A stretch of 64,000 nucleotides of DNA, from the sequence record OM386654.1; one strand, given 5' to 3'. The notes beneath the pieces are model-generated. The model worked only from the letters and a program-made list of their open reading frames with translations. It made no database searches and was not told where the DNA came from. The position numbers were made by a program, and so were the translations under genes. This document shows positions 1,435-26,506 of the stretch, piece by piece; position 1 is the first letter of the stretch; each line of letters begins with the position of its first letter. The DNA comes from Escherichia phage vB_EcoM_ESCO9.

Positions 1435-2595
1435 ATGTTTACAGTATTCGGCAATCAAATCTTTCTGCGTCAGAAATCTGGTACAGATATTGAAGAAATT
1501 CCAGCAGGAACTTTTGGTGTAGGTGTTACTCAAAGTGGTGAGTTCTTCCTGTATCCTAAAAACGATATGGAAGTCCCTTCAGTAACATACGGTGATACTG
1601 ATGATAAATCAGAACGTATTATCAAAACGTTCCTTAGCCGCAAAGGTAAAAACACAGGTGTTCTCCTTGAAGGTACGAAAGGTAGCGGTAAAACTTTGCA
1701 AGCTAAAATGCTGTCTTCTGCTCTTCGTGAAATGGGTATTCCTACTATTTCTATCGGTAGTGCTTTTAATGGTGAAGGCTTTATCAATTTTATGTCTAAA
1801 ATCACACAACCTGTGATGATTATGATCGATGAATTTGATAAACTGTATGCTGAAAAAGATGCACAAGATGGTTTGCTTACCCTGCTGGATGGTGTTGGTG
1901 GCTACGACAAACTGTTTGTATTGACTAAAAATGATGGTTATGTATCAGAATTTTTGCGTAATCGTCCTAGCCGTATTTTCTACAGTTTTAGCTATAAGAA
2001 ACTACCTAAAGCTACTATGGATGATTATCTGGCTAAAAATCTGGAGAACAAAGCCTTCTTACCAGATTTTGAAACGCTTTATAATCTCTCCGTGGATTTG
2101 AACTTTGATATTGTTCAGTCATTAGTAGAAGAACTTAACCGTTACCCTAATGACAAATTCTCTGATGCACTTGCATTGATGGGTATCAGTATTACTGAAC
2201 ACCGCTATGCTGCAAAAGAGGTTAAACTTCTGAAAGTTAACGGTGTAGATCGTACAGGAGATGTTTCGTCAGATACCGATATTGACGGTATGACAGCACA
2301 AGGTTTGTTTAGCGGTAATCGTTATGTTGTAGCTGTAGACCATAAACTAGGTGAAGAGCATCTTCCTGAAATGGAAGGGATTGTTACCGTAGAAGATAAA
2401 GATGAAGAAGGTGATTACTACTGGGGTGTAGACCGTATCTTGCTAACGTATGATGAAAAACACATTCGTACAATGGGTGGTGACGGCTATCACTTTATGT
2501 TCACCGATGATAAAGGTAACAACATTGAAGTTGTTATTAAAAACAAAGAACGTAAAAACTACACAGAGTATGTGTTTGGTGGTCGTTCTTACTAA
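1435..2595 (+). CDS. P-loop ATPase (AAA-like), function unknown
   Basis: Walker A GTKGSGKT and Walker B-like MIMIDEFD; RBS GAGGAG; followed by GAAA-loop hairpin. Confidence 0.5.
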   Translation: MFTVFGNQIFLRQKSGTDIEEIPAGTFGVGVTQSGEFFLYPKNDMEVPSVTYGDTDDKSERIIKTFLSRKGKNTGVLLEGTKGSGKTLQAKMLSSALREMGIPTISIGSAFNGEGFINFMSKITQPVMIMIDEFDKLYAEKDAQDGLLTLLDGVGGYDKLFVLTKNDGYVSEFLRNRPSRIFYSFSYKKLPKATMDDYLAKNLENKAFLPDFETLYNLSVDLNFDIVQSLVEELNRYPNDKFSDALALMGISITEHRYAAKEVKLLKVNGVDRTGDVSSDTDIDGMTAQGLFSGNRYVVAVDHKLGEEHLPEMEGIVTVEDKDEEGDYYWGVDRILLTYDEKHIRTMGGDGYHFMFTDDKGNNIEVVIKNKERKNYTEYVFGGRSY

Positions 2596-2603
2596 GTGAT
2601 AAA

Positions 2604-2628
2604 AGGAGGCGAAAGCCTCCTTTATTTA
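2604..2628 (+). terminator. Stem-loop (AGGAGGC-GAAA-GCCTCCT) followed by T-rich run
   Basis: Perfect 7-bp stem, GNRA-type loop, TTATTTAT downstream of ATPase stop. Confidence 0.45.
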
Positions 2629-2629
2629 T

Positions 2630-2833
2630 ATGGAGGGTATTATGGATCATTATTTTGTTTTTAAAGATAAAGTTGATACCGCAGGTGGTCACGTTGCTAA
2701 AAATGATCGTGACATTAAAGAAGTATTAGGAGATCTGATTAACATTTTAGAACAAAAAGAGTTGCTTTTAGATAAGGATATTGCTAGACTTCTTGGTGTG
2801 GGGATAAGTGACATACAAAGATTACCATTCTAA
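2630..2833 (+). CDS. Hypothetical protein (67 aa)
   Basis: ORF in co-directional gene array; no recognisable motif. Confidence 0.3.
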   Translation: MEGIMDHYFVFKDKVDTAGGHVAKNDRDIKEVLGDLINILEQKELLLDKDIARLLGVGISDIQRLPF

Positions 2834-2845
2834 AGGGGGAAGAAA

Positions 2846-3001
2846 ATGCTTACAGATGATGAATATAAAGCTATCCAAGAAAAACTAACGGAGCTTGAAA
2901 TTCTTGCTGTCAATATTAAAGATCAATCACATGCTGGAAAGTTACTACATCAAGAGATCAATAAAATTAAGCAGATGATATTCTTTTGGACGGAGGATTA
3001 A
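2846..3001 (+). CDS. Small hypothetical protein (51 aa), not in ORF track
   Basis: ATG preceded by strong RBS AAGGGGGAAG; fills otherwise empty gap; stop overlaps next gene region. Confidence 0.3.
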   Translation: MLTDDEYKAIQEKLTELEILAVNIKDQSHAGKLLHQEINKIKQMIFFWTED

Positions 3002-3003
3002 AA

Positions 3004-3660
3004 ATGACTGTTAAGCATATTTCTTTTGATGTATGGAATACTCTTATTACTGCTAATCCTTTGTATGCAGAAGAACGCAACAAGGTTATTGCCGAGTATG
3101 CCTCTTGTTCTGAGGCAGAAGCAGCTACTGTTTATAAAGAGGTAAAAACTCTCTTAGATTTAAAAGCAGAAAAAGGCATTTGTGGAACGTCTAAGGATGC
3201 TTGGGTAACACTTTCTACTCGTTTGAACATTGATCTTGACAAAGTGGATGGGTTAAAAAGAGATTGTTTGGCAATGTTTATAAAACATCCTCCAACATTG
3301 AATCCTGAACTTTGCAAGAAGTTGGAAGAGCTAAGTTCAACCTACTCTTTGAGTATTAAGAGCAATACTAATTTTGTACCAGGTAGTTTCTTAGCTGTAT
3401 ATTCTGGTTTAACAAAATTACCATTCGACTTTATGCATTTTTCTGACGAGTTTTGCTTGTGTAAACCAGATCCTAGGTTTTTTAAACTCTCTTTTGATGA
3501 AATGGTGACGTTTGATCTCGCACCAGAGGAGATTTTACACGTTGGAGATAGTTTGATTTATGATGGAAAAGCTGTTGACATAGGGATGAAGTTCTGTCAT
3601 ATTATTAATCCAGAAGACTTGTTGGCTAAACTTAAAAAAGAGGAACTTATTAATGCGTAA
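3004..3660 (+). CDS. HAD-superfamily hydrolase/phosphatase-like protein
   Basis: FDVWNTL N-terminal motif, CKPDPRFF (HAD motif III KP-D-P) and GDSLIYD (motif IV); RBS GGAGG. Confidence 0.6.
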   Translation: MTVKHISFDVWNTLITANPLYAEERNKVIAEYASCSEAEAATVYKEVKTLLDLKAEKGICGTSKDAWVTLSTRLNIDLDKVDGLKRDCLAMFIKHPPTLNPELCKKLEELSSTYSLSIKSNTNFVPGSFLAVYSGLTKLPFDFMHFSDEFCLCKPDPRFFKLSFDEMVTFDLAPEEILHVGDSLIYDGKAVDIGMKFCHIINPEDLLAKLKKEELINA

Positions 3661-4510
3661 TCAAATTCAACATTTTGCTAATACTTTTACTAACCTGAAG
3701 GAAGCAAAATTTAACATTGCAGATTATTCCAAACTAAAGTTTGGTAGTAACCAGGCAGCAAAAAGAATGGGGCGCATTCTGGCTGAAAGTTTCTTTTCTA
3801 AGTATGAAGAACGACTGGTAAATGAAAGTTTTGTTGTTATTCCATCTCCATATAACTATGTGAAAAATGCAGCTACAGTGTTATCTGAACATTTTGTAGA
3901 TCACCTCAACTACCTAATCTCTATCAAAGGTGGTAAACCAGTGGAGTGGGATATCGTTCATCGTAAAGTGAGCTATATCAATGATTATGGATTTCTTAGC
4001 AAAGAAGATCGTAAGGCTTTGATCGATGGTGACACTTTCTCTATCAATCGTGATTTCTGGGGTAATAAAACTCTGATTTTCATTGATGATGTTAATATTA
4101 CAGGAACGCACGAAGAAAAACTTATTGAAATTTTAGACAAAGAAGGTGTTGAAAACGATACGTTTTTCCTGTACTTTGCAAAGTATGAAGGTACAGAAGC
4201 CAACACCGAAGCTGCACTTAACTTCAACTATATCAATAACCTGGCAGCTTTTATTAAGATGATTAAGCAAGAAACTGATGCTAAATGTTTGGTTCGTCCT
4301 ATTAAGTATCTAATGAGTCAAAGCGAAGTTGATTTTAAAATTGCACTTTCACAGCTTCCTTTGTATTATGTAGAACAACTGTTCTTTGGTTGCCTTGCAG
4401 AAGGCTACAATAACATTGAAAAATATAAAGAGAACTTTGATTTTCTACGTCAATTTTTTGAAAGCAACATTATCAATAAATCTAATGTTAAAGGGGATTA
4501 TTATGTCTAA
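3653..4510 (+). CDS. Phosphoribosyltransferase (PRTase)-domain protein
   Basis: PRPP-binding type motif LIFIDDVNITGTHEE; start overlaps HAD stop (translational coupling). Confidence 0.55.
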   Translation: MRNQIQHFANTFTNLKEAKFNIADYSKLKFGSNQAAKRMGRILAESFFSKYEERLVNESFVVIPSPYNYVKNAATVLSEHFVDHLNYLISIKGGKPVEWDIVHRKVSYINDYGFLSKEDRKALIDGDTFSINRDFWGNKTLIFIDDVNITGTHEEKLIEILDKEGVENDTFFLYFAKYEGTEANTEAALNFNYINNLAAFIKMIKQETDAKCLVRPIKYLMSQSEVDFKIALSQLPLYYVEQLFFGCLAEGYNNIEKYKENFDFLRQFFESNIINKSNVKGDYYV

Positions 4511-5219
4511 TAAAGTAATGACTTTCGGAGATCCTATCACCAATATTACAGAAAAAGATTTTGGGCGTGTAGCAACAGATAAAGATGGTGTCTTAAGAAT
4601 TCGTGTACAAGGTATTACAGCACAGGATGAATATGCTGTGTATGTTTCAGGTCTTAACTATATTGATGATCGCATTACACAAAACTTTGCACTGATCGGT
4701 GGTGTAGAGAAAATGTACTGGGAAGATGAAATTGTAACAAGTTATCCAGCAGGTATCATTGAGGTATACGGTGATCTTTTAGCAGCAGCCGAGAGAGGCG
4801 ATATAGACGCTATAGCACACTGCTGTAACTGTTTTTGCACTATGGGTAGTGGTATTGCACCAAAAATTAAAAGTAAGTGGCCTGGGGCGTTTAAAGCAGA
4901 CTGTGCCACTAAACGTGGTGATTATAAAAAATTAGGTACGTTTACCAAGTATACAGAAAACAATTTGACAATTTATAATTTATATGGACAATATGGTTAT
5001 AGTCGTCGTGAGGAAGGCAAGCGTGACCTGAATTATGAAGCTATCTATAATGCGTTAGATAGTATGGGAGACGATGTTGTATCTTCAGGCGGTAAAATTG
5101 TAGGTTTACCAATGCTTGGTTGTGGTTTGGCTGGAGGTTCTTGGAATATTGTAAAACTTATGATCGAAGAAACTCTAGTAAACAAAGGTTTAAATGTAAT
5201 TGTTTACAAACTGAAATAA
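4503..5219 (+). CDS. Macro-domain-like protein (ADP-ribose binding/processing)
   Basis: DAIAHCCNC...GSGIA and LPMLGCGLAGG resemble macro-domain phosphate-binding loops; start ATG 4503 overlaps PRTase stop; RBS AAAGGGGA. Confidence 0.45.
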   Translation: MSNKVMTFGDPITNITEKDFGRVATDKDGVLRIRVQGITAQDEYAVYVSGLNYIDDRITQNFALIGGVEKMYWEDEIVTSYPAGIIEVYGDLLAAAERGDIDAIAHCCNCFCTMGSGIAPKIKSKWPGAFKADCATKRGDYKKLGTFTKYTENNLTIYNLYGQYGYSRREEGKRDLNYEAIYNALDSMGDDVVSSGGKIVGLPMLGCGLAGGSWNIVKLMIEETLVNKGLNVIVYKLK

Positions 5220-5228
5220 GGAGAAAGT

Positions 5229-5435
5229 ATGGCAGGTGTTTTAGCAGTATTAGGTTGTTTTATTGTTGTGTTCTTGATTGTGTTAATCCCTAGTTGGCTA
5301 CTGCTTTTAGCATACAATTATATGATTGACATTATCGGCTTAGACTGGCATCATGTTCCTGTAACGTTTTGGAGTGTAGTCTGTGTGACGTTCATTCTTG
5401 CGGTACTCCGTGGTATCTTTCAATCTAACAAATAA
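5229..5435 (+). CDS. Small membrane protein (68 aa, 2 predicted TM helices)
   Basis: Hydrophobic stretches VLAVLGCFIVVFLIVLIPSWLLLLAY and VTFWSVVCVTFILAVL; RBS AAGGAGAAAG. Confidence 0.4.
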   Translation: MAGVLAVLGCFIVVFLIVLIPSWLLLLAYNYMIDIIGLDWHHVPVTFWSVVCVTFILAVLRGIFQSNK

Positions 5436-5449
5436 GAGAGGATCTTTAT

Positions 5450-5698
5450 ATGCGTAAAGTAAATGTTGAAGTGCTTGAAAAATTTATAAACACCCGTGAT
5501 TGTACTATCGGCAAGGTTTACGAGGCTATTCTCATTGAAGATGGGGATGAAGTTCCTGCCCCGTATCATGCCTTTAACGGTCAGGTTAGCAAAGTGGAAG
5601 GTGGTCTTGCTATTTGCTTTATTGATGATGTAGGTGATGCTGTAGCTTTCCCTATCATTAACAAAGAAGATAAACTTAAAATTACAGAACTGAACTAG
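5450..5698 (+). CDS. Hypothetical protein (82 aa)
   Basis: ORF with RBS GAGAGGATC upstream; no recognised motif. Confidence 0.4.
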   Translation: MRKVNVEVLEKFINTRDCTIGKVYEAILIEDGDEVPAPYHAFNGQVSKVEGGLAICFIDDVGDAVAFPIINKEDKLKITELN

Positions 5699-5726
5699 TT
5701 GACTTTCTTTAAAAACAGTTTATAGT
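5699..5726 (+). promoter_or_regulatory. Sigma70-like promoter candidate (TTGACT-16-TATAGT) upstream of terC-like gene
   Basis: Near-consensus -35 and -10 hexamers with 16-nt spacer. Confidence 0.35.
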
Positions 5727-5738
5727 ATAAGATATAGA

Positions 5739-5757
5739 GCGGAGGATTGTCCTCCGC
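5739..5757 (+). other. Stem-loop in putative 5' UTR of terC-like gene (GCGGAGG-ATTGT-CCTCCGC), no U-tract
   Basis: Perfect 7-bp inverted repeat between promoter candidate and RBS GAGGAG. Confidence 0.35.
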
Positions 5758-5775
5758 ATTAAAGAGGAGATAAGA

Positions 5776-6753
5776 ATGCAACTGGGTTTCCCAATTATTG
5801 ATGTGGTTGTTTTAGTGGGTATTTTAGTGTTGTCGATTTGTATTGATTTCTTTGGCCACAGAGAAAACAAAGAAATTTCATTTAAATCTGCAATTGGTTG
5901 GTCAATTTTTTGGATTGGGGTATCATTAGCCTACTATGGTTTTGTATACTTCCAGCACGGTGCTGATTTTGCGAGCTTGTTCTTGAGTGGGTATGTGTTG
6001 GAGAAATCTCTTTCTGTAGATAACTTAGTAGTATTTGTGGCAGTATTCGCAAGTTTTGGTATTAAAAGCACACACTTGCAACACAAGATTCTACTTTGGG
6101 GTATTGCAGGTGCGATTGTCTTCCGAGGTGTGTTTGTAGCAGTAGGCACTTACTTGTTGAGTTTGGGTTGGTATGTTAATATCTTCTTCGGTGCTGTCAT
6201 CCTTTTCTGTGCGGCTAAAATGGTATTCGCTGGAGATAATGATGCAGAAGTTGATTACTCTAAACACTGGGCTACTCGCATTGTTCGTAAGCTGTTCCCT
6301 GTATCTGATCAGATGGATGGTGAGAAGTTCTTCACAATCAAAAATGGTGTTCGTGTAGCAACTCCGGCTCTGGTTTGTGTGTTTGTAATGGAAATGGTTG
6401 ACGTAATCTTTGCAGTAGACTCTGTTCCAGCAGTAATTGCAGTGACACAAGAACCTCTGCTGGTGTTCTCTTCGATGCTCTGTGCAATCTTAGGTTTACG
6501 TGCTCTGTTCTTTGTTCTTAGTGTTGCACTGAAGTATTTGGTTCATCTGGAGAAAGCAGTTATCGTAGTCCTGGTATTTGTGGGTGTAAAACTGATGTAT
6601 CATCCGTTTGCAGAAACTCTGCACGCAAAAGTGAGTTTCCTGCCAGCACACATTGATCCGACGATCAGTATGTATATTGTGTTAGGTACTCTTGGGTTGG
6701 GTGTTATTGCAAGTTTAATCTTCCCTGAAAAAGAAGACCAGACTGTTGCTTAA
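5776..6753 (+). CDS. terC: TerC-family integral membrane protein
   Basis: Multi-TM protein with duplicated TerC signature: LEKSLSVDNLVVFVAVF and EMVDVIFAVDSVPAVIAVT. Confidence 0.8.
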   Translation: MQLGFPIIDVVVLVGILVLSICIDFFGHRENKEISFKSAIGWSIFWIGVSLAYYGFVYFQHGADFASLFLSGYVLEKSLSVDNLVVFVAVFASFGIKSTHLQHKILLWGIAGAIVFRGVFVAVGTYLLSLGWYVNIFFGAVILFCAAKMVFAGDNDAEVDYSKHWATRIVRKLFPVSDQMDGEKFFTIKNGVRVATPALVCVFVMEMVDVIFAVDSVPAVIAVTQEPLLVFSSMLCAILGLRALFFVLSVALKYLVHLEKAVIVVLVFVGVKLMYHPFAETLHAKVSFLPAHIDPTISMYIVLGTLGLGVIASLIFPEKEDQTVA

Positions 6754-6760
6754 TTCATTA

Positions 6761-6782
6761 AGCCCCTTCGGGGGCTTTGTTG
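6761..6782 (+). terminator. Intrinsic terminator (AGCCCC-TTCG-GGGGCT + T-run)
   Basis: UUCG tetraloop hairpin followed by TTTGTTG just after terC-like stop. Confidence 0.5.
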
Positions 6783-6985
6783 AGGTGATCTGATGGTAGT
6801 TTTACGTGTTCTTTGGATTCTGTTTGAAAATATTTGTTTTGCTTTAGGGTTATTTTGTTTGATTTTTATCTTGACAACATACATTGATAACCATACAATT
6901 ACTATCAACAGGAACGGAGAACAGATGTATTGTTTCTCTAGGGATTTTAAAAATTGTGTTGAGACTTTAAATGAGAGGGTTACAA

Positions 6986-7576
6986 ATGAAAAACATTAAA
7001 TCTTTTATTGTTGCAGTTGTTTTAGGTAGTGCATTGCTGGTAGGTTGTGATGATTCTGAAAATGTACAAAATCAACGTTACCAACAAACACCAAATCAGA
7101 TGGTAGATGAACAATATGTAAATCAGCCTGCACCTCAAGTTGTTCAAGCAGCACCTGCACAACCTTCAACAGTTGTTGTGCAAGGAGGCGGCAGTGGTTC
7201 TTCTGGTGTAGGTGAGTTTGCTACAGGTATGCTTCTTGGTCATATGTTGAGTGGTAATAGTGGCGGTGGTGGTTATAGAGATGGTGGTAGCAGCACAACA
7301 ATTATTAATAACAACGCTGCTCCTACAACTAACAGTAAAGCATATACAACACAAAAGCATAGTTTTTATGATAAACAAGGAAATACATATACAACCACTA
7401 AACAAAACACAATTAAGCAGCAAAGTGTACAAACGTATTCACGCCCATCAACAACAAAAGTGAATAGTGATTACTCTGCTCGTAAGTCTTACTCAAGCCC
7501 TATTAGCTCTTATAGTAAGTCTTCGAAAAGTTATTCTTCGTCGAAACGTAGTTTTAGTAGCTCACGTCGTCGTTAA
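6986..7576 (+). CDS. Putative lipoprotein, Gly/Ser/Thr-rich
   Basis: Signal peptide with lipobox LLVGC; low-complexity S/T/G-rich mature region; RBS GAGAGG. Confidence 0.5.
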   Translation: MKNIKSFIVAVVLGSALLVGCDDSENVQNQRYQQTPNQMVDEQYVNQPAPQVVQAAPAQPSTVVVQGGGSGSSGVGEFATGMLLGHMLSGNSGGGGYRDGGSSTTIINNNAAPTTNSKAYTTQKHSFYDKQGNTYTTTKQNTIKQQSVQTYSRPSTTKVNSDYSARKSYSSPISSYSKSSKSYSSSKRSFSSSRRR

Positions 7577-7611
7577 TAATTTAATACAGATTAAATAAGA
7601 AGGAGAAACAG

Positions 7612-8463
7612 ATGAAACTAGAAGTTGGTAAAGTATATCGCCTGGAAGGTTGGATCTTTAATCAAGAAATCCTTGAGAAGAATAAAGATGGTTTTGAGTT
7701 TGTTGGTACTACCAAGGAAAGTATGCACGATGACGAATACTGTAAATTCGTTGGTAAAAATACAGGTCAAGAACAATTTTGCTTTAAGAGCGCAATCGGG
7801 GACTATGCTTCTGTAATGCCAACACCAGAAAAGACTTCGAAGCAATATACTGTCTTTGGTGTAAAACTTGAAGAACTTGTAGAACACCCACGTTTTGAAG
7901 AGTTCAAGGTTGCTGCAATGCGCAAGCATTCTGAAATTAAAATACATAATTTGTTTGATTTAGAAGATCGGTTTGATATCTTTATGTATGATCGCAGGGA
8001 AAAGCATTTTGATGCAACGACTTCAAAATTTGCTGCAACAGAGGATATTAAAATCCTTGATGTTGATACCTTTCTTGAGAGTGTATCGTTTGTATTCATT
8101 CCTAAATACAAAAAACGTAGTGATCATAAACGTGTGAAAGGAACTCCTCGTAAGAAACGTACTGTAAACAAAGCAACTTTGCACTTCACTTCTGGTGATA
8201 AATATACTCTCAAAGGGTTTGAAAGTGTTTTATATGATGCTGGAACAGGTAATATCAAGTTTATCATTAAGGCAACCTACAAAGGTACGGTATTGCACGA
8301 AGAGGCTGTTACACTACCTGTATTCGATATCTCTCGTGTTGAGGTACGGGGTGTTAAAGAGTCCTTCGATCTGGATTTCTTAACTACTAATGCTACTGGT
8401 TATGTTAATCTGGAAGCAGATGGAGCATTTATTACTACAAATTATTTAGATATGTTTGTTTAA
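7612..8463 (+). CDS. Hypothetical protein (283 aa)
   Basis: Long ORF with RBS AAGGAGAAA; no motif recognised. Confidence 0.45.
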   Translation: MKLEVGKVYRLEGWIFNQEILEKNKDGFEFVGTTKESMHDDEYCKFVGKNTGQEQFCFKSAIGDYASVMPTPEKTSKQYTVFGVKLEELVEHPRFEEFKVAAMRKHSEIKIHNLFDLEDRFDIFMYDRREKHFDATTSKFAATEDIKILDVDTFLESVSFVFIPKYKKRSDHKRVKGTPRKKRTVNKATLHFTSGDKYTLKGFESVLYDAGTGNIKFIIKATYKGTVLHEEAVTLPVFDISRVEVRGVKESFDLDFLTTNATGYVNLEADGAFITTNYLDMFV

Positions 8464-8531
8464 TACTTAATTTGTGTTATGATGGTGGTACAGAGGTATC
8501 ACCATCTACTAAAGAATATGGAGGAAATTGA

Positions 8532-9635
8532 ATGTCCAGTCCTTTTATCAGTGCCGTAAAAAGCAAACCGTCTGAAATGAGTGTATTCACGGCAACAACA
8601 GAAAAAAGTAAGTCTTTGTTTGCTCCAAGTGCTATGGATGCAAGCCCTGTATATGCCCCTGCTGTTGCACGACCTGTACAAATGCTGCCTCCAATGTCTC
8701 GTGAAGAGATTGAACAGGTTGGTGCTGATGCAGGACTTACTCTTCGTAACCTTAATGCTGAAGTGCTTAAACACCAGCGTTCATCTCAGGGAGATGAAAT
8801 GAGTGAACGTTTAACTGCACTTATTAAGCAAGCAAAGCAACTTGATCCTAACTCTATTAAACAATCTAAAGGCTTAGGTAAACTAGTTAAGAAAGTATTA
8901 GGTATGAAAGAAGATTTGTTTGGTGAATTTGACACCATCAATAATCGTATTGAAGGTTTGGTAAAGACACTACAAACAGACTTGAAAAAAGAAGAAGATT
9001 CTTTACGATATCTGCAACGTTTAGAAGAGGCTATTGCAAAATATGCTCTTAGCTTAAACAGGGATATAGAGCTTCTAACAGCTACTTATGAAAAAGAAGA
9101 AGTTCGCCTTAATACACTACCTGAAAATGAAGTAGAAGAGCGTCAACGTACTCGTGACACTATGGATCTGCTTGAAATTCGTATTGCAGATCTGAAAGCC
9201 TTACGTTTACTGTGCGTTCAGATGGGGCCACGTGTACAAAGTATGCAGAAAGTATCTGCAAGTTTGATGCGATCAGCCCGTAATATTGTGAATAATGTTA
9301 TTCCTGCTTACTCTGCAAACTTTTCTATGTATATTGAAAGTCTACGCCAGAAGAAAGCAGCCGATACGCAGAACAATGTACTGAATGAATTTAATGCTGC
9401 TATTGCAATGGGTAGTGATCTGGCTGCACAAAACCAGATTGAAGCTACACAACTTGCTAATCGTCAAGTATTGGATATTGAAACATTGCGTCGTGATCAA
9501 GAAAACTTAGTTAAAATGTTGGAAGAAACTAACCGAATCAACACTGAAGCCCGTGCTGCTCGTATTGATTACATTCAAGAAGTGCAATCTCTTGAAGATG
9601 GTATGATTCAAACTGTTAAACGTGGTCTACTTTAA
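8532..9635 (+). CDS. Coiled-coil protein, candidate TelA/KlaA-like toxic-anion-resistance family member
   Basis: 367-aa predominantly helical/coiled-coil protein; assignment rests mainly on size, composition and position between terC-like and terD-like genes. Confidence 0.35.
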   Translation: MSSPFISAVKSKPSEMSVFTATTEKSKSLFAPSAMDASPVYAPAVARPVQMLPPMSREEIEQVGADAGLTLRNLNAEVLKHQRSSQGDEMSERLTALIKQAKQLDPNSIKQSKGLGKLVKKVLGMKEDLFGEFDTINNRIEGLVKTLQTDLKKEEDSLRYLQRLEEAIAKYALSLNRDIELLTATYEKEEVRLNTLPENEVEERQRTRDTMDLLEIRIADLKALRLLCVQMGPRVQSMQKVSASLMRSARNIVNNVIPAYSANFSMYIESLRQKKAADTQNNVLNEFNAAIAMGSDLAAQNQIEATQLANRQVLDIETLRRDQENLVKMLEETNRINTEARAARIDYIQEVQSLEDGMIQTVKRGLL

Positions 9636-9648
9636 GGAGAAATATATT

Positions 9649-9855
9649 ATGAATATTAAAATTTACAAACTGTCTGGTTCTATGATTGCTGTTCAGTATG
9701 ACAATGAAGATCGTTATGTTCTCCTCCAGGATGCTTGGTTAGATGATCCTAATGTATTCACTGTCCTGCGAGAACTACGTTCTGTCTATACCTATTCTTC
9801 TAAAGATGGTTTTGACAATTCAACGATGGAATTGGTAAAAGAGGAGAATGTGTAA
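9649..9855 (+). CDS. Hypothetical protein (68 aa)
   Basis: ATG with RBS AAGGAGAAA. Confidence 0.4.
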   Translation: MNIKIYKLSGSMIAVQYDNEDRYVLLQDAWLDDPNVFTVLRELRSVYTYSSKDGFDNSTMELVKEENV

Positions 9856-10055
9856 TGAGTAAAGATATTCACTTAACTCGTGAAGAATTGCAAACCATTA
9901 TGGAAGATGCTTTCATTGATGGTTGGAAACAAGGTCAAGAATCAGATTGGTATGATGCCGAAGATTTTTTGTATTATCATATGACTGCACCTGTAGACGA
10001 GCAAACACACTCTGAAACAACTTTGGCTTTAATTGATCTTAAGGCTGGTGTATAA
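9855..10055 (+). CDS. Hypothetical protein (66 aa)
   Basis: ATG with RBS GAGGAG, start overlaps previous stop. Confidence 0.4.
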   Translation: MSKDIHLTREELQTIMEDAFIDGWKQGQESDWYDAEDFLYYHMTAPVDEQTHSETTLALIDLKAGV

Positions 10056-10618
10056 TGGGGTGTTTTAGTTTCTTGTGCAAAGAGTCTGGTAATGCTGCTC
10101 TTTCTACCTCTTTCGATGGCTCTCCTTGCTACCTATTTCTTTTGAAAGGTGGTAAGGTTGTCGAAGAGATGTATGGGAATTATGATAGCTATGGTAGTGT
10201 TTTCTCTAACGAAGAAGATAAACATGGCAATCGTAAAAGATTTAAGTGGTCTATGCCTTGGGAAGAAGTTTGTAATTTGATGTTCTCTTCCGATCTTGGA
10301 GATGGGATTGCTCTAGTATTAGAAGAGCACTTTACAGGCGAGATCCCAACAGAAAGATCTGAAGAAGACCCTAACCAGGGTTGGGGTGATGGGGAAGAAG
10401 ATCCAGATTGCTTCTTCAGCACTGAAAATAATAAATTTAAACGTGTTGACAATCCTTACCACAAAGTGCATAATACTTGCATTGAGACAGAAGAAGACTC
10501 AAAGCTAGAAATTGAAGATGATTTAGTTGTAACTATCTCTTTAAACGAGTTGCAAAAAATCACTAGAGAGGCTTTCTATTTAGGTTGGAAAGTAGGTAAA
10601 GGAGGAGATAGTGCTTAA
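10055..10618 (+). CDS. Hypothetical acidic protein (187 aa)
   Basis: ORF in coupled array; Asp/Glu-rich. Confidence 0.4.
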   Translation: MGCFSFLCKESGNAALSTSFDGSPCYLFLLKGGKVVEEMYGNYDSYGSVFSNEEDKHGNRKRFKWSMPWEEVCNLMFSSDLGDGIALVLEEHFTGEIPTERSEEDPNQGWGDGEEDPDCFFSTENNKFKRVDNPYHKVHNTCIETEEDSKLEIEDDLVVTISLNELQKITREAFYLGWKVGKGGDSA

Positions 10619-10880
10619 ATTTAATATCAAAGACGACAAATCAGATGAACCTAAATGTTTTGGAGAACTTGACGTAGGTGATACATTTGTATATTATGTT
10701 GCCTATCAAGATTCTGGTTTAGATACATTCAGAAATTTAGTGTTTATTAAGGTTAATACAAACCAAGCAATGTGTCTGAACGGTTCGCAAAGAGGTCAAC
10801 TTAGCTGTATTTCGTATGATACAGAAATGGTAGAAGTGGATTTAGAAGTTACTAACATTACACTCAGAAAGGAGAAATAA
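10611..10880 (+). CDS. Hypothetical protein (89 aa)
   Basis: GTG start with RBS AGGAGGAG. Confidence 0.4.
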   Translation: MLKFNIKDDKSDEPKCFGELDVGDTFVYYVAYQDSGLDTFRNLVFIKVNTNQAMCLNGSQRGQLSCISYDTEMVEVDLEVTNITLRKEK

Positions 10881-10881
10881 T

Positions 10882-11676
10882 ATGTCCAATAAAATCAGTC
10901 TTAAAAAACGTCAAGAAACTCTTACCGTATCTCTGCGTAAGAAAAAGATTAACGATGTTGTTCTTCGTGTCGGTAGTGCCTTAGATATTTCGGGTAGTAT
11001 GTGTGAGCTGTATCGTGATGGCACTGTTAGTGATTTTGTAGGTAAACTGCTGCCGTTTGGTATGAAGTTTGATGATAATGCACAGATTGACATGTGGGCT
11101 TTCAATAGTTCTTCTTTTGAACTGCCTCCTGCAACGGCTGATGTATATGATGATTATGTCGGCTCTTGTATGTCTAATGTTTGCATCAATGGTGGTACAG
11201 CTTATGCCCCAGTAATGCAAGAGATCTATGATACATACTTCGGTAGTGTACCTATGAAAAATATTACACGCGAAGTCGTTGAGTATGAAGAAGTTCCGGC
11301 TAAGGGTTTCCTTGCTAAACTAACTGGTAAAAAAGAACGTGTAGAAGTTACACGTACTGTTGTAGAACAGGTTGTAGATACTGATGCACAAGTTGATCGT
11401 ACTCCTGCAATGATTTTCTTCCAAACTGACGGGGAGAACATGGATACTTCAGCAGTACGTAGTTTGCTGAACAAACACCGCAACACTCCTGTTTACTGGT
11501 TTATGGTTGGTGTAGGCAATGCAAACTTTAAATTCCTGAAAGACTTGGCAAAAGAATACGATAATGTTGATTTTATCGGTATTGCAGATTTGTCCTTGTC
11601 TGACGAAGAACTTTACGATAAACTGCTATCCGAAGAGTTTGGTGAGTGGGTTAAAAAATTTGGAGCAAAAGCGTAA
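10882..11676 (+). CDS. vWA-domain protein (TerY-like) with TerD-like N-terminal segment
   Basis: MIDAS motifs LDISGSM, GGTAYAP and FFQTDGENMD; N-terminus MSNKISLKKRQETLTVSL resembles TerD N-terminus. Confidence 0.55.
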   Translation: MSNKISLKKRQETLTVSLRKKKINDVVLRVGSALDISGSMCELYRDGTVSDFVGKLLPFGMKFDDNAQIDMWAFNSSSFELPPATADVYDDYVGSCMSNVCINGGTAYAPVMQEIYDTYFGSVPMKNITREVVEYEEVPAKGFLAKLTGKKERVEVTRTVVEQVVDTDAQVDRTPAMIFFQTDGENMDTSAVRSLLNKHRNTPVYWFMVGVGNANFKFLKDLAKEYDNVDFIGIADLSLSDEELYDKLLSEEFGEWVKKFGAKA

Positions 11677-11683
11677 AAAACGC

Positions 11684-11711
11684 TTGACTTTGTAGAAAAG
11701 ATTAGTAAAAT
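11684..11711 (+). promoter_or_regulatory. Sigma70-like promoter candidate (TTGACT-16-TAAAAT) upstream of terD
   Basis: Consensus-like hexamers, 16-nt spacer, about 40 nt upstream of terD start. Confidence 0.4.
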
Positions 11712-11748
11712 AGACAACGTAAATTAACAACAAAGGAGATAATAAATT

Positions 11749-12345
11749 ATGACTCAGAAAATTTCCCTGAAAAAAGGTTCTAGCGAAAAAGTTTCTCTGA
11801 AAAAGATTGCACCAGCACTGAAACGCATTCGTCTGGAATTCTCTTGGAAATCTAACGAAAAACTGGATCTGGATGTTAGTGCTCTGATTTGCCGACACAA
11901 TGCATCTGGTCTGCCGGAACTGTTGTCTCCTCGCCACCTGGTGTGCTACGCGCAGAAATTTGATCCTGAACGTTCTACTTTTGCAGGTGAAGATGTTCGT
12001 GATGGTGTAGGACAGATGGAGCAGATTGATGTTACACTGGATAATATCTCTGCTGAAGCACAGGAAATTGCATTCGTAATTACTATTGATGACGAAACGG
12101 GTAAGAAACGCCTTGGTCACGCTACCGAAGGTTTCCTTAAAATCTTCGATGATGAACGTAATGTTGAACTGCTGGATTTTGACTTCTTGGCTCCAGAACT
12201 TGCAGGTAATACCATTTGCCACGTTGCCTCCCTGGTGCGGGAAGATAGCGAATGGAAACTGAAAGCATATGGTGTAGGTAAAGCTGGACTTGACATTTAT
12301 GATGTAGTTAAAGCGTTTGGCGCTGGCGACGATTGGTTCGAGTAA
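11749..12345 (+). CDS. terD: TerD-family protein
   Basis: ISLKKG...KVSLKK, LDLDVSALIC, FVITIDD, EWKLKAYGVG align in order with the TerD family pattern as recalled from E. coli TerD. Confidence 0.85.
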   Translation: MTQKISLKKGSSEKVSLKKIAPALKRIRLEFSWKSNEKLDLDVSALICRHNASGLPELLSPRHLVCYAQKFDPERSTFAGEDVRDGVGQMEQIDVTLDNISAEAQEIAFVITIDDETGKKRLGHATEGFLKIFDDERNVELLDFDFLAPELAGNTICHVASLVREDSEWKLKAYGVGKAGLDIYDVVKAFGAGDDWFE

Positions 12346-12354
12346 TAAATCATA

Positions 12355-12378
12355 GCGCCCTTCGGGGCGCATATTTTA
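12355..12378 (+). terminator. Intrinsic terminator (GCGCCC-TTCG-GGGCGC + AT/T-run)
   Basis: UUCG tetraloop hairpin immediately after terD stop. Confidence 0.5.
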
Positions 12379-12397
12379 AATAGAAGAGGAGAAAACA

Positions 12398-13000
12398 ATG
12401 GGTATTACTTTAGAAGGTCAAAAACTTATTCGTAGCGGTAATTTTCTTGTGGATATTGACAACAATGAAGATTATGCTTTAGAAGTTAGTGATGTACTGT
12501 TTAATGCTTTGCAGTCTGGTTTCAATTTTGAAGTTTATGAAGTAATCCGTGGAACTAAACTCAGAGATACCCTTGGATCAACTAGTGATGTTTATTCGGC
12601 AATCTGGCAATATTTCGGGTTAATGGATGGTAAGACATACCTTACTGATAGTTATTCTGAAGATGTTGTTTATCTTGATATGGAAGAGTTTCGTCGTCTG
12701 TTCAAAAATGAAGAAAATGAAGAAGAGGGTGAACTTTTTGAAGGAATTACTCTCGAAGGTAATGTTGAAATTGTGTATAAAGCAGGAAAAACATTCCACT
12801 TGCGCGAAAACGGTAAAGCAAAAGTTGATTTTGTAAACAAGACAGTAACAACTGAACATAATTATCTTAAAGATGGTCAACCAGCTTTTGAACGTGTAAC
12901 AATTAAATTTAAAGTATTGTCTGCACTAATTACGGATCAAGAACGTATTGATTTTGTAGAAGATGGTGTAGTAACTCATACGAAGGTCTACAACATCTAA
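12398..13000 (+). CDS. Hypothetical protein (200 aa)
   Basis: ORF with RBS AGAGGAG. Confidence 0.45.
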   Translation: MGITLEGQKLIRSGNFLVDIDNNEDYALEVSDVLFNALQSGFNFEVYEVIRGTKLRDTLGSTSDVYSAIWQYFGLMDGKTYLTDSYSEDVVYLDMEEFRRLFKNEENEEEGELFEGITLEGNVEIVYKAGKTFHLRENGKAKVDFVNKTVTTEHNYLKDGQPAFERVTIKFKVLSALITDQERIDFVEDGVVTHTKVYNI

Positions 13001-13010
13001 CAGGGTGTAA

Positions 13011-13029
13011 GAGGGGGATAATCCCCCTC
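13011..13029 (+). other. Stem-loop GAGGGGGA-TAA-TCCCCCTC (no U-tract)
   Basis: Perfect 8-bp inverted repeat after the 12398-13000 gene. Confidence 0.35.
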
Positions 13030-13032
13030 AAC

Positions 13033-13061
13033 TTGCAAAACAGCCTCTTCTGTGTTACAAT
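13033..13061 (+). promoter_or_regulatory. Sigma70-like promoter candidate (TTGCAA-17-TACAAT)
   Basis: Hexamers with 17-nt spacer upstream of cell wall hydrolase gene. Confidence 0.35.
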
Positions 13062-13092
13062 AAAAGTTCGTTTAACAAAATAGGAGGCAAGT

Positions 13093-13602
13093 TTGTCAAT
13101 AAAAACCTTTGTCGCAATTGCGTTACTATCCTTAACTGCTTTTACATTTACACCTGTCGTGGCGCAAGCCGAAGCTGCAAACGTAAAAACTGCTAAAGTA
13201 GTTCACAAGTGTACAAAGCGTGATAGTAAAGAAAATCTATTAGCTTGTGCAATCTATGCAGAAAGTCGTAATCAAGGAAAGCGCGGTATGTCTGCTGTTG
13301 GTAATGTAGTATTAAATAGGGCTAGAGATTCATATTTCCCTGATACTATAAAAGAAGTTTTGTTTCAAAAAGGACAATTCTCTTACACAAAGACATTCAA
13401 CGTTATGGAACGTGATAAGTGGAAGGAAGCTAAGGCTATAGCAGAACGTCTGCTTTATCTCGATACGCATTTTCCAGAATTACGAATTGCATTAGATATT
13501 ACAAAAGGAGCATTATACTTTAAAAAATCTACAATAAGAGCACACTGGGAAAAAGATATGGTTCTAGTGTACCGCTACAAAGAACATCAATTCTATCGCT
13601 AA
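13093..13602 (+). CDS. Secreted cell-wall hydrolase, SleB/Hydrolase_2-like
   Basis: N-terminal signal peptide (…FTPVVAQAEAANV); motif CAIYAESRNQG...GNVVLNRA...FSYTK typical of SleB-type cell wall hydrolases; TTG start with RBS AGGAGG. Confidence 0.6.
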   Translation: MSIKTFVAIALLSLTAFTFTPVVAQAEAANVKTAKVVHKCTKRDSKENLLACAIYAESRNQGKRGMSAVGNVVLNRARDSYFPDTIKEVLFQKGQFSYTKTFNVMERDKWKEAKAIAERLLYLDTHFPELRIALDITKGALYFKKSTIRAHWEKDMVLVYRYKEHQFYR

Positions 13603-25349: not shown

Positions 25350-26081
25350 ATGAGCGAATTTGTAAACAACACCGCATTAAACTACCTGCAAACCCTCGAA
25401 AGCAATAGTGTAGATTTGATTCTTACTGACCCACCATATGCTATTTCTCGTGACACAAATTTTCAGTCTGGAGAGCCTACTGGAAAAGATACGGATAGAT
25501 TCCGTGTATCTTACAACTTCGGTGATTGGGATGTTGTAGATATTCCTTACTTTAAAGAAGTATTCAAAGAAGCCTACAGGGTGCTTAGAAAAGGTGGTAC
25601 TTGCATAGTTTGGTATGATATCTGGAAGATCCAGGAACTACGTGAAATCCTTGAACCGCTTGGTTTTCGTATGTTCCGTACCATCGAATGGATTAAAACA
25701 AACCCTGTACCCATCAACAGTGGTGTTAACTACCTTAGTAACGCTAAAGAGATGGCTATTGTTTGTGTTAAAGGTTCGAAACCAACCTTCAATGCTTCCT
25801 ACCATAAGGGTGTGTTTGAGTATCCTATCTATCAAGGAGCAGATCGTTTTCATCCAACACAAAAACACTTGACTTTGTTTTGTGACCTTATTAATATACA
25901 CACCAACGAAGGAGATGTAGTCTTAGACTTCTTCTCTGGAAGTGCAACAACACAAGTTGCGGCACTTTTAACAGGTAGAGAATACTTAGGCTGTGAAGCC
26001 GATGTAAATATTTTTAAGCAAGCGGAGGAACGACTAAATGAGTACACTGAACAGCAAAATCACCCTGAAAGCACTGATTAA
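25350..26081 (+). CDS. DNA methyltransferase, beta-class amino-MTase (N6-adenine or N4-cytosine)
   Basis: Motif IV DPPY (LILTDPPYAI) precedes motif I-like VLDFFSGSATT; no adjacent restriction endonuclease recognised. Confidence 0.75.
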   Translation: MSEFVNNTALNYLQTLESNSVDLILTDPPYAISRDTNFQSGEPTGKDTDRFRVSYNFGDWDVVDIPYFKEVFKEAYRVLRKGGTCIVWYDIWKIQELREILEPLGFRMFRTIEWIKTNPVPINSGVNYLSNAKEMAIVCVKGSKPTFNASYHKGVFEYPIYQGADRFHPTQKHLTLFCDLINIHTNEGDVVLDFFSGSATTQVAALLTGREYLGCEADVNIFKQAEERLNEYTEQQNHPESTD

Positions 26082-26469
26082 CAATGGTATGAACCTGGAC
26101 TCTGGTCTGTCTCCAAAGATTTCTATGGCACGACTGGAACAAGTTACTGGTCTTCGTCAAGTAAGTAATGGCGGTAAGATTATTCGTGATGACGCTGTAC
26201 CTTTTAATAAGTTTCAGATTGAACGTCATTACGATCCTGTAACTGCAAGCCTCACTGGTGTAACTTTCTCAGGTTATCGTACTGCCGGATACCAGCGTAA
26301 AGTTGTAGCTGAACGTATTAAGAGTCGCAAACAGAAAATTGCGACATTGAAGAAACTGGTAGAGAAAGATGTTTCAGAACTTCTTAACCTGTATGAAACT
26401 CTTGAGACAAAAGGTGAAGATCATAAACTCTTCTCTAAAGAAGATGTAAGCGTAATTTTCACTGATTAA
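26038..26469 (+). CDS. Hypothetical protein (143 aa)
   Basis: ATG overlapping MTase 3' end; RBS GGAGGAACG. Confidence 0.4.
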   Translation: MSTLNSKITLKALINNGMNLDSGLSPKISMARLEQVTGLRQVSNGGKIIRDDAVPFNKFQIERHYDPVTASLTGVTFSGYRTAGYQRKVVAERIKSRKQKIATLKKLVEKDVSELLNLYETLETKGEDHKLFSKEDVSVIFTD

Positions 26470-26473
26470 GATA

Positions 26474-26506
26474 AAAGAAAAGGAGCCTAATGGCTCCTTT
26501 TTGTTT
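26474..26506. terminator. Bidirectional intrinsic terminator at convergent junction (A-run, AAGGAGCC-TAAT-GGCTCCTT, T-run)
   Basis: Perfect 8-bp stem flanked by A-tract and T-tract between last plus-strand gene and first minus-strand gene. Confidence 0.6.

Follow-up and report, generated by a model that had tools for sequence, protein, structure and literature searches.

Ter genes are widespread in bacteria, on plasmids of pathogens, and in large phages. Links of the classical ter cluster to phage inhibition and to resistance against colicins date from the 1990s, while its mechanism and its predicted nucleoside product are still being sought. What, then, are relatives of these genes doing side by side in a coliphage, and do they work together at all? 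We asked this of a stretch of 64,000 nucleotides from Escherichia phage vB_EcoM_ESCO9 (sequence record OM386654.1; hereafter the window), in which a first-pass annotation, made from the letters alone, had pointed to a Ter-family block at positions 2846 to 12378. We found that the block holds six protein families that recur together in independent phage lineages, and we tentatively propose that it is a self-contained, phage-encoded version of a bacterial Ter stress system with a protective role in membrane and ion homeostasis.

The block encodes a Ter core, a HAD-PRTase pair, and a macro-domain protein

The window comes from a phi92-like myophage, Justusliebigvirus (Stephanstirmvirinae), to which phage Paula is 98.7% identical, and the block genes correspond to gp189 to gp172 in the Paula/phi92 numbering. 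The 9.5-kb region is shared over its full length, at 98.0-98.7% identity, with Paula, phi92, alia, VEcB, and ~50 other Justusliebigvirus genomes, and at 80-90% identity with ~50 phAPEC8-like Phapecoctavirus genomes; in the BASEL phages EmilieFrey, JohannJBalmer, and PaulScherrer, the block genes are identical. Megablast of the block against 5,426 complete E. coli genomes gave no match; the set thus belongs to the phage, and recent capture from the host was rejected.

The families read from the sequence at first pass, TerC, TelA, vWA (von Willebrand factor A), TerD, HAD, phosphoribosyltransferase (PRTase), and macro, were all borne out by Pfam, HAD being borderline, and all seven proteins have matching phage families in PHROGs. 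Their genes lie on the + strand, between hairpins at 2602-2623 and 12355-12370:

3004..3660, + strand: HAD-superfamily hydrolase (phi92 gp187); PF00702, 26.3 bits; phrog_14393 'hydrolase', 7e-119
3653..4510, + strand: PRTase_3 ('ComF-like') type I phosphoribosyltransferase (phi92 gp186); PF15610, 1.5e-41, 143 bits
4503..5219, + strand: macro-domain protein (phi92 gp185); Pfam Macro, 2e-7; macro domain at residues ~86-238
5776..6753, + strand: TerC/Alx-family integral membrane protein (phi92 gp182); Pfam TerC, 1.2e-38, 133 bits vs. a cut-off of 27.8
8532..9635, + strand: TelA-family protein (phi92 gp178); Pfam TelA, 5e-34, 118.3 bits vs. a cut-off of 30; phrog_5890
10882..11676, + strand: vWA protein, TerF C-terminal type (phi92 gp173); PF10138, 7e-39, 134.5 bits vs. 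a cut-off of 29.4
11749..12345, + strand: TerD-domain protein (phi92 gp172); Pfam TerD, 5e-28, 98.2 bits vs. a cut-off of 25.3

The signature motifs are in place in the four Ter proteins. The TerC protein scores 322.8 bits with the Alx subfamily model TIGR03718 of NCBIfam, above the curated cut-off of 246.4, and its translation contains the SLSVDN and AVDSVPA motifs that had been picked out at first pass. The TelA match spans positions 13-330 of the 332 in the profile. The vWA protein has an intact metal ion-dependent adhesion site (MIDAS; DISGS...GGT...TDG), whose motifs are conserved in 11 homologues, and the acidic Ca2+-site motifs of the TerD protein, DLD and GEDxxDG...E, align across 24 homologues. 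The Ter core hub sensu Anantharaman, Iyer, and Aravind, that is, TerC, TerD, TelA, and a TerF-type vWA protein, is therefore represented in full by sequence. Lacking TerB and further TerD paralogues, the block is a subset of the classical terZABCDEF tellurite-resistance operon, not the operon itself.

One of the initial assignments had to be revised. The vWA protein had been called TerY-like, with a TerD-like N terminus. It is of the TerF type (PF10138), and membership in a TerY-P defence system was rejected because PADLOC returned no TerY-P hit for it or any neighbor, and Pfam scans of the block open reading frames (ORFs) found no PP2C or kinase domain. The TerD-like N-terminal domain was rejected as well, what it shares with TerD being a short motif of ~20 residues (11 of 20 alike, E 0.086). 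TerB, PspA, and ATP-grasp were sought in the orphan ORFs of the window phage, phAPEC8, and the distant modules, and none was found. In phAPEC8, a SprT-like metalloprotease-domain protein (gp056, L002:16250-16822) is encoded just 5' of telA, for which the phi92-type block has no counterpart.

The HAD and PRTase genes overlap by 8 nt (3653 vs. 3660). HAD motifs I-IV (FDVWNT, SNT, KP, and GDxxxxD) are conserved in 44 homologues, and NCBIfam gives weak IA-subfamily hits for this protein. In the PRTase, the phosphoribosyl pyrophosphate (PRPP) loop DDVxITGTHE is invariant in 64 sequences. Structure prediction with a Foldseek search, recommended at first pass, confirmed the type I PRTase fold and gave no significant match for TelA. 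The AlphaFold 2 model of the PRTase is confident (predicted local distance difference test, pLDDT, 91.8), and its best Foldseek matches are HGXPRT (6-oxopurine PRTases), ComF, and PyrR (probability 1.0, TM 0.35-0.5), none of which offers a counterpart to an extra C-terminal helical domain at ~185-277. The TelA model, built on a 16-sequence alignment, consists entirely of long helices at low confidence (pLDDT 59, pTM 0.37), and Foldseek against the PDB returned nothing for it at E<=0.001, only generic long-helix bundles (BAR domains, AhlC/ClyA). Sequence searches of the PDB found no relative of TelA or PRTase_3.

The HAD-PRTase pair and Ter genes stay close despite rearrangement

That the genes belong together had been supposed from their proximity in this one phage, and synteny comparison supports it. 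We compared 48 PRTase-homologue loci, with flanks of up to 10 kb, drawn from GenBank phages, plasmids, IMG/VR, GTDB genomes, and metagenome contigs; they were searched with iterated profiles built from the window proteins, and clustering of the phage PRTases at 70% identity yielded 19 lineages. The HAD gene lies directly 5' of the PRTase gene, mostly overlapping it, in 46 of the 48 loci, and hosts of the pair span Escherichia, Xanthomonas, Rhizobium, Caulobacter, and Bacteroidota. Within 10 kb of the pair there is at least one Ter gene in 10 of the 19 phage lineages, at least three in 8, and the complete set of TerC, TelA, TerF-type vWA, and TerD in 6. Gene order is shuffled among lineages (L032, L036, L038, and L040), being for instance TelA-vWA...TerC-HAD-PRT-TerD in L032, TerC-vWA-TerD-TerD-TelA-HAD-PRT in L036, and TelA-HAD-PRT-vWA-TerC-TerD in L040. 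The families are also rare, each occurring in <0.5% of 50,697 phage records (TelA in 245 and PRTase_3 in 156). Since rare families have kept their proximity despite rearrangement, there is strong evidence of functional coupling. As judged from these gene neighborhoods, the clustering of Ter genes with HAD-PRTase exceeds chance and marks a real functional module.

Bacteria provide further examples, in agreement with a link between Ter genes and a PRTase plus HAD that the first-pass annotation had drawn from comparative-genomic work. On a Hymenobacter plasmid, the HAD-PRTase_3 pair is divergent from three TerD genes, two vWA genes, and genes for a PP2C, a kinase, and DUF475, and in two Bacteroidota metagenome-assembled genomes (MAGs) the pair adjoins TerD/TerC. 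On Rhizobiaceae plasmids and chromids (L011, L014-L025) it stands alone, as on Rhizobium johnstonii pRL10, where it lies beside repA (L011:11370-12843). The Rhizobiaceae PRTase falls within phage-like diversity (41-49% identity), the Bacteroidota copy being at ~29-30%, a distribution that suggests exchange of HAD-PRTase between phages and Rhizobiaceae plasmids. A homologue had been expected on R478-type plasmids as well, and this was rejected: tblastn of PRTase_3 against 72,556 plasmids found it in Rhizobiaceae and Hymenobacter only, with no IncHI2 plasmid among the matches. Jumbo phages that lack Ter genes beside the pair still encode them elsewhere, CcrColossus having TerD 28 kb off and XaC1 also having TerD (28-165 kb from the pair in these two phages), and Ter operons of Caulobacter phages have been reported (PMC7824862).

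Two observations on the compared loci are worth recording. Directly 3' of terD, three divergent phage Ter modules encode a ~300-aa family with no Pfam match (L007:1574-2557, L032:11436-12386, and L038:11515-12465), a possible extra component of the module that the phi92-type block lacks. Five records named 'Campylobacter phage' (host C. jejuni), including MG065645, MG065689, MG065639, and MG065650, are 99-100% identical in the genes compared here to phi92-like or phAPEC8-like coliphages, and are likely to reflect a host mislabel or contaminating coliphage; 'Acinetobacter phage ABPW7' and 'Pseudomonas phage PsgM04F' resemble them.

The macro-domain gene is probably a separate counter-defence gene

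The first-pass annotation had treated HAD, PRTase, and macro genes as a translationally coupled trio. Both 8-nt overlaps are real, the second one joining PRTase and macro (4503 vs. 4510), but the macro gene proved to be unrelated to the pair. It lies within 10 kb of HAD-PRTase in just 4 of the 19 phage lineages, 2 of which are Stephanstirmvirinae, and T4, which has a homologue, has neither HAD-PRTase nor Ter genes. Since the linkage is this rare and the T4 homologue does without the pair, the coupling of macro to PRTase is best seen as local gene packing.

The relatives of the macro protein point elsewhere. It matches the DarG models of PADLOC, for which this was the only defence-system match obtained, and of NCBIfam (1e-13), and it stays below the cut-off of the full-length DarG equivalog (48.9 vs. 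250) because it lacks the DarG C-terminal domain. Its relatives in the PDB are of the TARG1 class, namely SCO6735, BT1257, and human TARG1 (including 5e3b and 2fg1). The macro domain is 30% identical to that of T4 Tk.4 (E 9e-18), both proteins belonging to phrog_335, and a 2025 preprint showed Tk.4, there renamed AdfM, to be the anti-DarTG2 factor of T4, removing DarT-made ADP-ribose from DNA. The N-terminal ~85 aa are unique, being found in neither T4 Tk.4 nor the phAPEC8 homologue. These likenesses suggest that the gene is probably a separate AdfM-like ADP-ribosyl hydrolase serving counter-defence; by analogy with AdfM, it would most likely reverse DarT-type ADP-ribosylation of phage DNA. 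A three-member HAD/PRTase/macro metabolite pathway was rejected, the macro protein being an AdfM/DarG homologue whose gene travels independently of the pair, and treating it as a probable anti-DarTG2 factor avoids a misleading three-enzyme pathway model.

Candidate expression signals frame the block

Candidate transcription signals lie at both ends of the block and in two of its intergenic gaps:

2602..2623, + strand: terminator-like hairpin, 9-bp stem followed by a T-run; upstream block boundary
5699-5726, + strand: sigma-70-like promoter TTGACT-16-TATAGT, in the gap 5' of terC
5739-5757, + strand: 5'-untranslated region hairpin between this promoter and terC; dG -15 kcal/mol, z -4.4
11684..11711, + strand: sigma-70-like promoter TTGACT-16-TAAAAT in the vWA-terD intergenic gap; a consensus match only
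12355..12370, no strand assigned: GC-rich bidirectional hairpin GCGCCCTTCGGGGCGC, 3' of terD; downstream block boundary

The upstream hairpin closes the nrdD/nrdG/AAA unit, and the annotation of Paula has a terminator at the matching site. The -35 and -10 elements of the terC promoter are kept in phAPEC8, whose authors annotated a host-dependent promoter at this site, and in a third lineage, the IMG/VR relative L030. The hairpin that follows is kept in the same two relatives with a different stem sequence (compensatory changes), and may stabilise the mRNA as a 5' stem-loop or mark a processing site. Rfam at E<=1 found nothing over 2400-13200, including any yybP-ykoY/Alx-type Mn2+ riboswitch before terC, and at gathering score it found only tRNAs in the whole window. 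Although they are consensus matches, the promoter-like sites suggest early transcription by host RNA polymerase, and with terminator-like hairpins on its flanks and promoter-like sites before terC and terD, the block has the predicted layout of one expression unit.

Predicted small membrane proteins and a predicted lipoprotein are interleaved with the Ter genes

Between and ahead of the seven family genes there are further ORFs, most of them small:

2630..2833, + strand: 67-aa ORF (phi92 gp189) heading the block; no Pfam match
5229..5435, + strand: 68-aa predicted small membrane protein with two hydrophobic segments (phi92 gp184); phAPEC8 homologue at 3.5e-24; no Pfam match
6793..6999, + strand: 68-aa protein with an N-terminal hydrophobic segment (phi92 gp181); conserved in phAPEC8; weak, sub-cut-off DUF6693 match
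6986..7576, + strand: predicted lipoprotein (phi92 gp180); lipobox LVGC followed by Asp; phrog_21570; no Pfam match
7612..8463, + strand: 283-aa protein (phi92 gp179); Stephanstirmvirinae only, with a weak phAPEC8 match (1.3e-13)
9649..10880, + strand: four small ORFs (phi92 gp177, gp176, gp175, and gp174) filling the gap from telA to vWA; no Pfam match

A homologue of gp189 is kept just 5' of the HAD region in phAPEC8 (1.2e-18). The lipoprotein gene, for which we used the start codon of the Paula annotation, lies between terC and telA, and its product has a long, low-complexity body rich in Q/P/G/S and a basic Ser-rich tail. In E. coli, an Asp after the lipobox Cys usually means retention in the inner membrane. 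No Pfam, NCBIfam, or PADLOC family was found for gp179. The ORFs gp177-gp174 are conserved in phAPEC8, not in the distant Ter modules; among them, the N terminus of gp176 (9855-10055) and the C terminus of gp175 (10055-10618) share a 27-residue motif, ELQxIxxxAFxxGWKxG (41% identity, E 2e-5). The presence of two predicted small membrane proteins and a predicted lipoprotein among the Ter genes would fit an envelope function.

Every gene in the first ~26 kb of the window is on the + strand, and the block lies 3' of nrdD, nrdG, and an AAA ATPase gene and 5' of a SleB-type lysin gene and glycosyltransferase genes. The lysin is a cell-wall hydrolase of the SleB type whose N terminus has a signal-like hydrophobic segment; it is encoded at 13093-13602, ~750 bp past the block, and its phAPEC8 homologue is annotated as an endolysin; in the unrelated contig L036, a SleB homologue lies 2 kb from the Ter module. 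Farther along the window, GC skew flips from positive to negative at ~26000-28000, consistent with a switch in transcription direction between two large gene blocks, and six tRNA genes are found on the - strand at 62852-63567 (Ile-GAT, Met-CAT, Leu-TAG, Phe-GAA, Pro-TGG, and Gln-TTG).

A proposed membrane-protective role and its rivals

What might such a module do? Its identity as a Ter module is nearly certain. A role in which altered membrane/ion homeostasis shields the infected cell is possible, although we regard it with some doubt, and the proposal as a whole, for which identity and role were judged in combination, has in our estimate a little less than an even chance of being right. From the observed family identities, intact motifs, and gene linkage, we infer a product, an assembly, and a biological role along the following lines. 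The core would consist of an Alx-type, ion-transporting TerC, a helical TelA beneath the membrane, a MIDAS-bearing vWA protein, and a Ca2+-binding TerD. The PRTase would couple a base to PRPP, and the HAD enzyme would process the product into a nucleoside-like small molecule, which would act on or through the metal-dependent TerD/vWA/TelA/TerC assembly at the inner membrane. A shift in membrane and ion (Ca2+/Mn2+) homeostasis would follow and make the cell refractory to later membrane insults such as the entry of rival phage DNA, pore-forming colicins, and membrane-targeting abortive-infection (Abi) effectors. The boldest form of this proposal, in which a phage-made nucleoside signal switches TerC/TelA/vWA/TerD and so hardens the inner membrane against rival phages, colicins, and membrane-depolarising Abi effectors, is somewhat unlikely; if true, the module would be a broad membrane-level anti-exclusion/anti-Abi device and would give a first handle on Ter function in any organism.

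Several observations weigh against the proposed system. The chemistry of the pair is its weakest part. The PF00702 score of the HAD protein is just below the cut-off (26.4 bits), and in its motif I, DVWNT (residues 7-15), the usual second Asp at nucleophile +2 is missing; of 43 homologues aligned over this motif, 42 have Trp (Tyr in one homologue) at this position. That second Asp (DxDxT) is the general acid/base in HAD phosphatases. With Trp in its place, phosphomonoesterase/phosphoesterase chemistry is therefore only assumed, and the motif suggests that the substrate may bear a good leaving group or that the chemistry may differ, and that the enzyme may not be a canonical phosphatase. For the PRTase, the modelled fold does not point to one substrate. 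The TelA model is too poor to carry any claim about fold or membrane binding. In gene content, Pfam searches of 20 ORFs found no TerB, no TerZ/A/E paralogues, and a single TerD-domain protein; the PRTase of R478 is not of this family, so that what is known of classical-operon phenotypes may not apply here. The 10-kb flanks of HAD-PRTase are free of Ter genes in 9 of the 19 phage lineages and in all Rhizobiaceae loci, so the pair, lacking adjacent Ter genes in about half of the phage lineages, can work without them. Finally, the literature searched contained no experiment on any phage Ter gene.

The same proteins could instead be auxiliaries of metal homeostasis, which we consider unlikely. TerC/Alx would export or deliver Mn2+ (or Ca2+/Zn2+), with TerD and the MIDAS buffering cations, to the benefit of phage enzymes, such as the anaerobic ribonucleotide reductase encoded next to the block, or of phage proteins that are exported, with no exclusion of rivals. 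The phage TerC does fall in the Alx subfamily, and E. coli Alx, a TerC relative, is a Mn2+ exporter (PMC10197570). In Bacillus subtilis, MeeF, encoded in the yceCDE-meeF operon, mediates Mn2+ efflux, and MeeF and MeeY metalate exoenzymes (PMC10550928); phage TerD homologues are annotated as yceD-like. Klebsiella pneumoniae terC affects Zn resistance (PMC12054061), Jug jumbo phages pair terD genes with a Ca2+ ATPase, and a lysin of the SleB type, predicted to carry a signal peptide, adjoins the block, as a SleB gene is likewise found near the module in L036. Yet metal supply leaves TelA and the tightly linked HAD-PRTase without a role, the host already has Alx, and Rfam detected no metal-sensing riboswitch before the phage terC. 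A distinctly unlikely alternative has two independent units, HAD-PRTase being a stand-alone nucleotide-metabolism or counter-defence device that merely sits near a Ter cassette in some phages, where it might, for example, make a nucleoside analogue, or drain or divert PRPP or a host immune nucleotide. PRTases are effectors in the ShosTA, retron, and Ophion defence systems, and HAD phosphatases are found in validated defence systems; the 9 lineages and the Rhizobiaceae loci with no nearby Ter gene, together with the distant TerD genes of XaC1 and CcrColossus, also argue this way. Against it, at least 8 lineages have the pair directly adjoining TerC, TerD, or TelA, in an order that varies among them, and it is found with TerD clusters in Bacteroidota, which is hard to explain without functional coupling, genomes in which the genes are separated still encode both sets, and the phage PRTase matches no PADLOC defence model.

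Components of the R478 ter cluster expressed alone are toxic or cause filamentation, which could be taken to mean that the block serves lysis timing or host killing, with TelA (a homologue of KlaB of the RK2 kilA operon) and TerC perturbing the inner membrane and thereby setting holin/endolysin firing or host shutdown. The SleB-type lysin gene begins ~750 bp past the 3' end of the block, there is a SleB homologue near the L036 module, and a telA/kilA connection has been cited in the literature. We nonetheless find this highly improbable, given that most distant modules have no lysis gene nearby, that the host sigma-70-type promoter-like sites suggest early rather than late expression, and that no holin-like partner was identified. 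Lastly, phage accessory regions are mosaic, and ~10 orphan ORFs, mostly restricted to the subfamily, are interleaved here, so unrelated accessory genes with no joint function might have come together by chance. This is barely credible when families that each occupy <0.5% of phage records are found, all six within 10 kb and rearranged, in six independent lineages, and when they also co-cluster in bacteria (Hymenobacter plasmid).

The proposed Ter system lends itself to experiment. The phi92-like phages carry a compact, TerB-free Ter set, with six families in one block, and grow on E. coli K-12, so that gene deletion, metabolomics, and membrane physiology could conveniently be pursued in them. 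If such work gave a clear phenotype, it would bear on competition between phages as well as on the old question of Ter function.

Comparison with known Ter systems

Ter modules of this kind are already known, as is the phage, and the novelty is low. GenBank records of phi92, Paula, and relatives already name these Ter-family genes, terC/terD/terF/telA sets have been reported in phages phiPsa374 and phiKp34, and gut Jug jumbo phages have highly transcribed terD operons, one of them beside a pspA-like gene. The phiPsa374 authors considered tellurite resistance unlikely for such a Ter subset. The first-pass annotation knew of no characterized phage system of this composition, which holds for experimental work in the literature searched; the composition itself and the exclusion idea, however, had been published (PMC7824862).

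Of the bacterial systems, the terZABCDEF/terWXY genes of the IncHI2 plasmid R478 and of E. coli O157 islands share the TerC, TerD-domain, and TerF-type vWA families with the phage block. The phage block differs from R478 in having no TerB and no TerZ/A/E set, a single TerD, and TelA, a member of another determinant, telAB/kilA. Phage inhibition and resistance to colicins are conferred by the R478 cluster (Whelan 1995, as cited in later work), and it is because of these phenotypes (Phi, PacB) that exclusion is hypothesized. The B. subtilis envelope-stress operon yceCDE-meeF(yceF)-yceGH has the same hub of TerD, TerC, and TelA, and no vWA protein or HAD-PRTase pair. We take its YceC/D/E to be TerD-like and its YceH to be TelA-like. 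The Hymenobacter monticola plasmid NZ_CP094537 has an overlapping HAD-PRTase_3 pair (29-35% identity) beside TerD and the TerC-related DUF475 membrane protein; unlike the phage, it also encodes two vWA proteins of the TerY type, a PP2C phosphatase, and a kinase, and it lacks TelA. For the macro gene alone, T4 Tk.4/AdfM is the counterpart, being a DarG/TARG1-class macrodomain of phrog_335 that lacks the ~85-residue N-terminal region of the phi92-type protein.

The nearest precedents are the phage systems described by Iyer, Anantharaman, Krishnan, Burroughs, and Aravind in 2021 (PMC7824862), who reported Ter systems in jumbo and certain smaller tailed phages, among them a near-complete system with PRTase and HAD in Acinetobacter phage ME3 and TerD/TerC/TerF/TelA in Caulobacter jumbo phages, and proposed that they serve competition with, or exclusion of, superinfecting phages. 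The families are alike, as is the predicted arrangement, with PRTase and HAD providing a nucleoside-type signal, TerD binding ligand or metal, TerC in the membrane, and TelA and the TerF-type vWA protein beneath it. In contrast to those examples, the carrier here is a 146-kb, non-jumbo coliphage, in which the six families share one co-oriented block of ~9.5 kb that is interleaved with genes for predicted small membrane proteins and a predicted lipoprotein and adjoins an AdfM-like macro gene.

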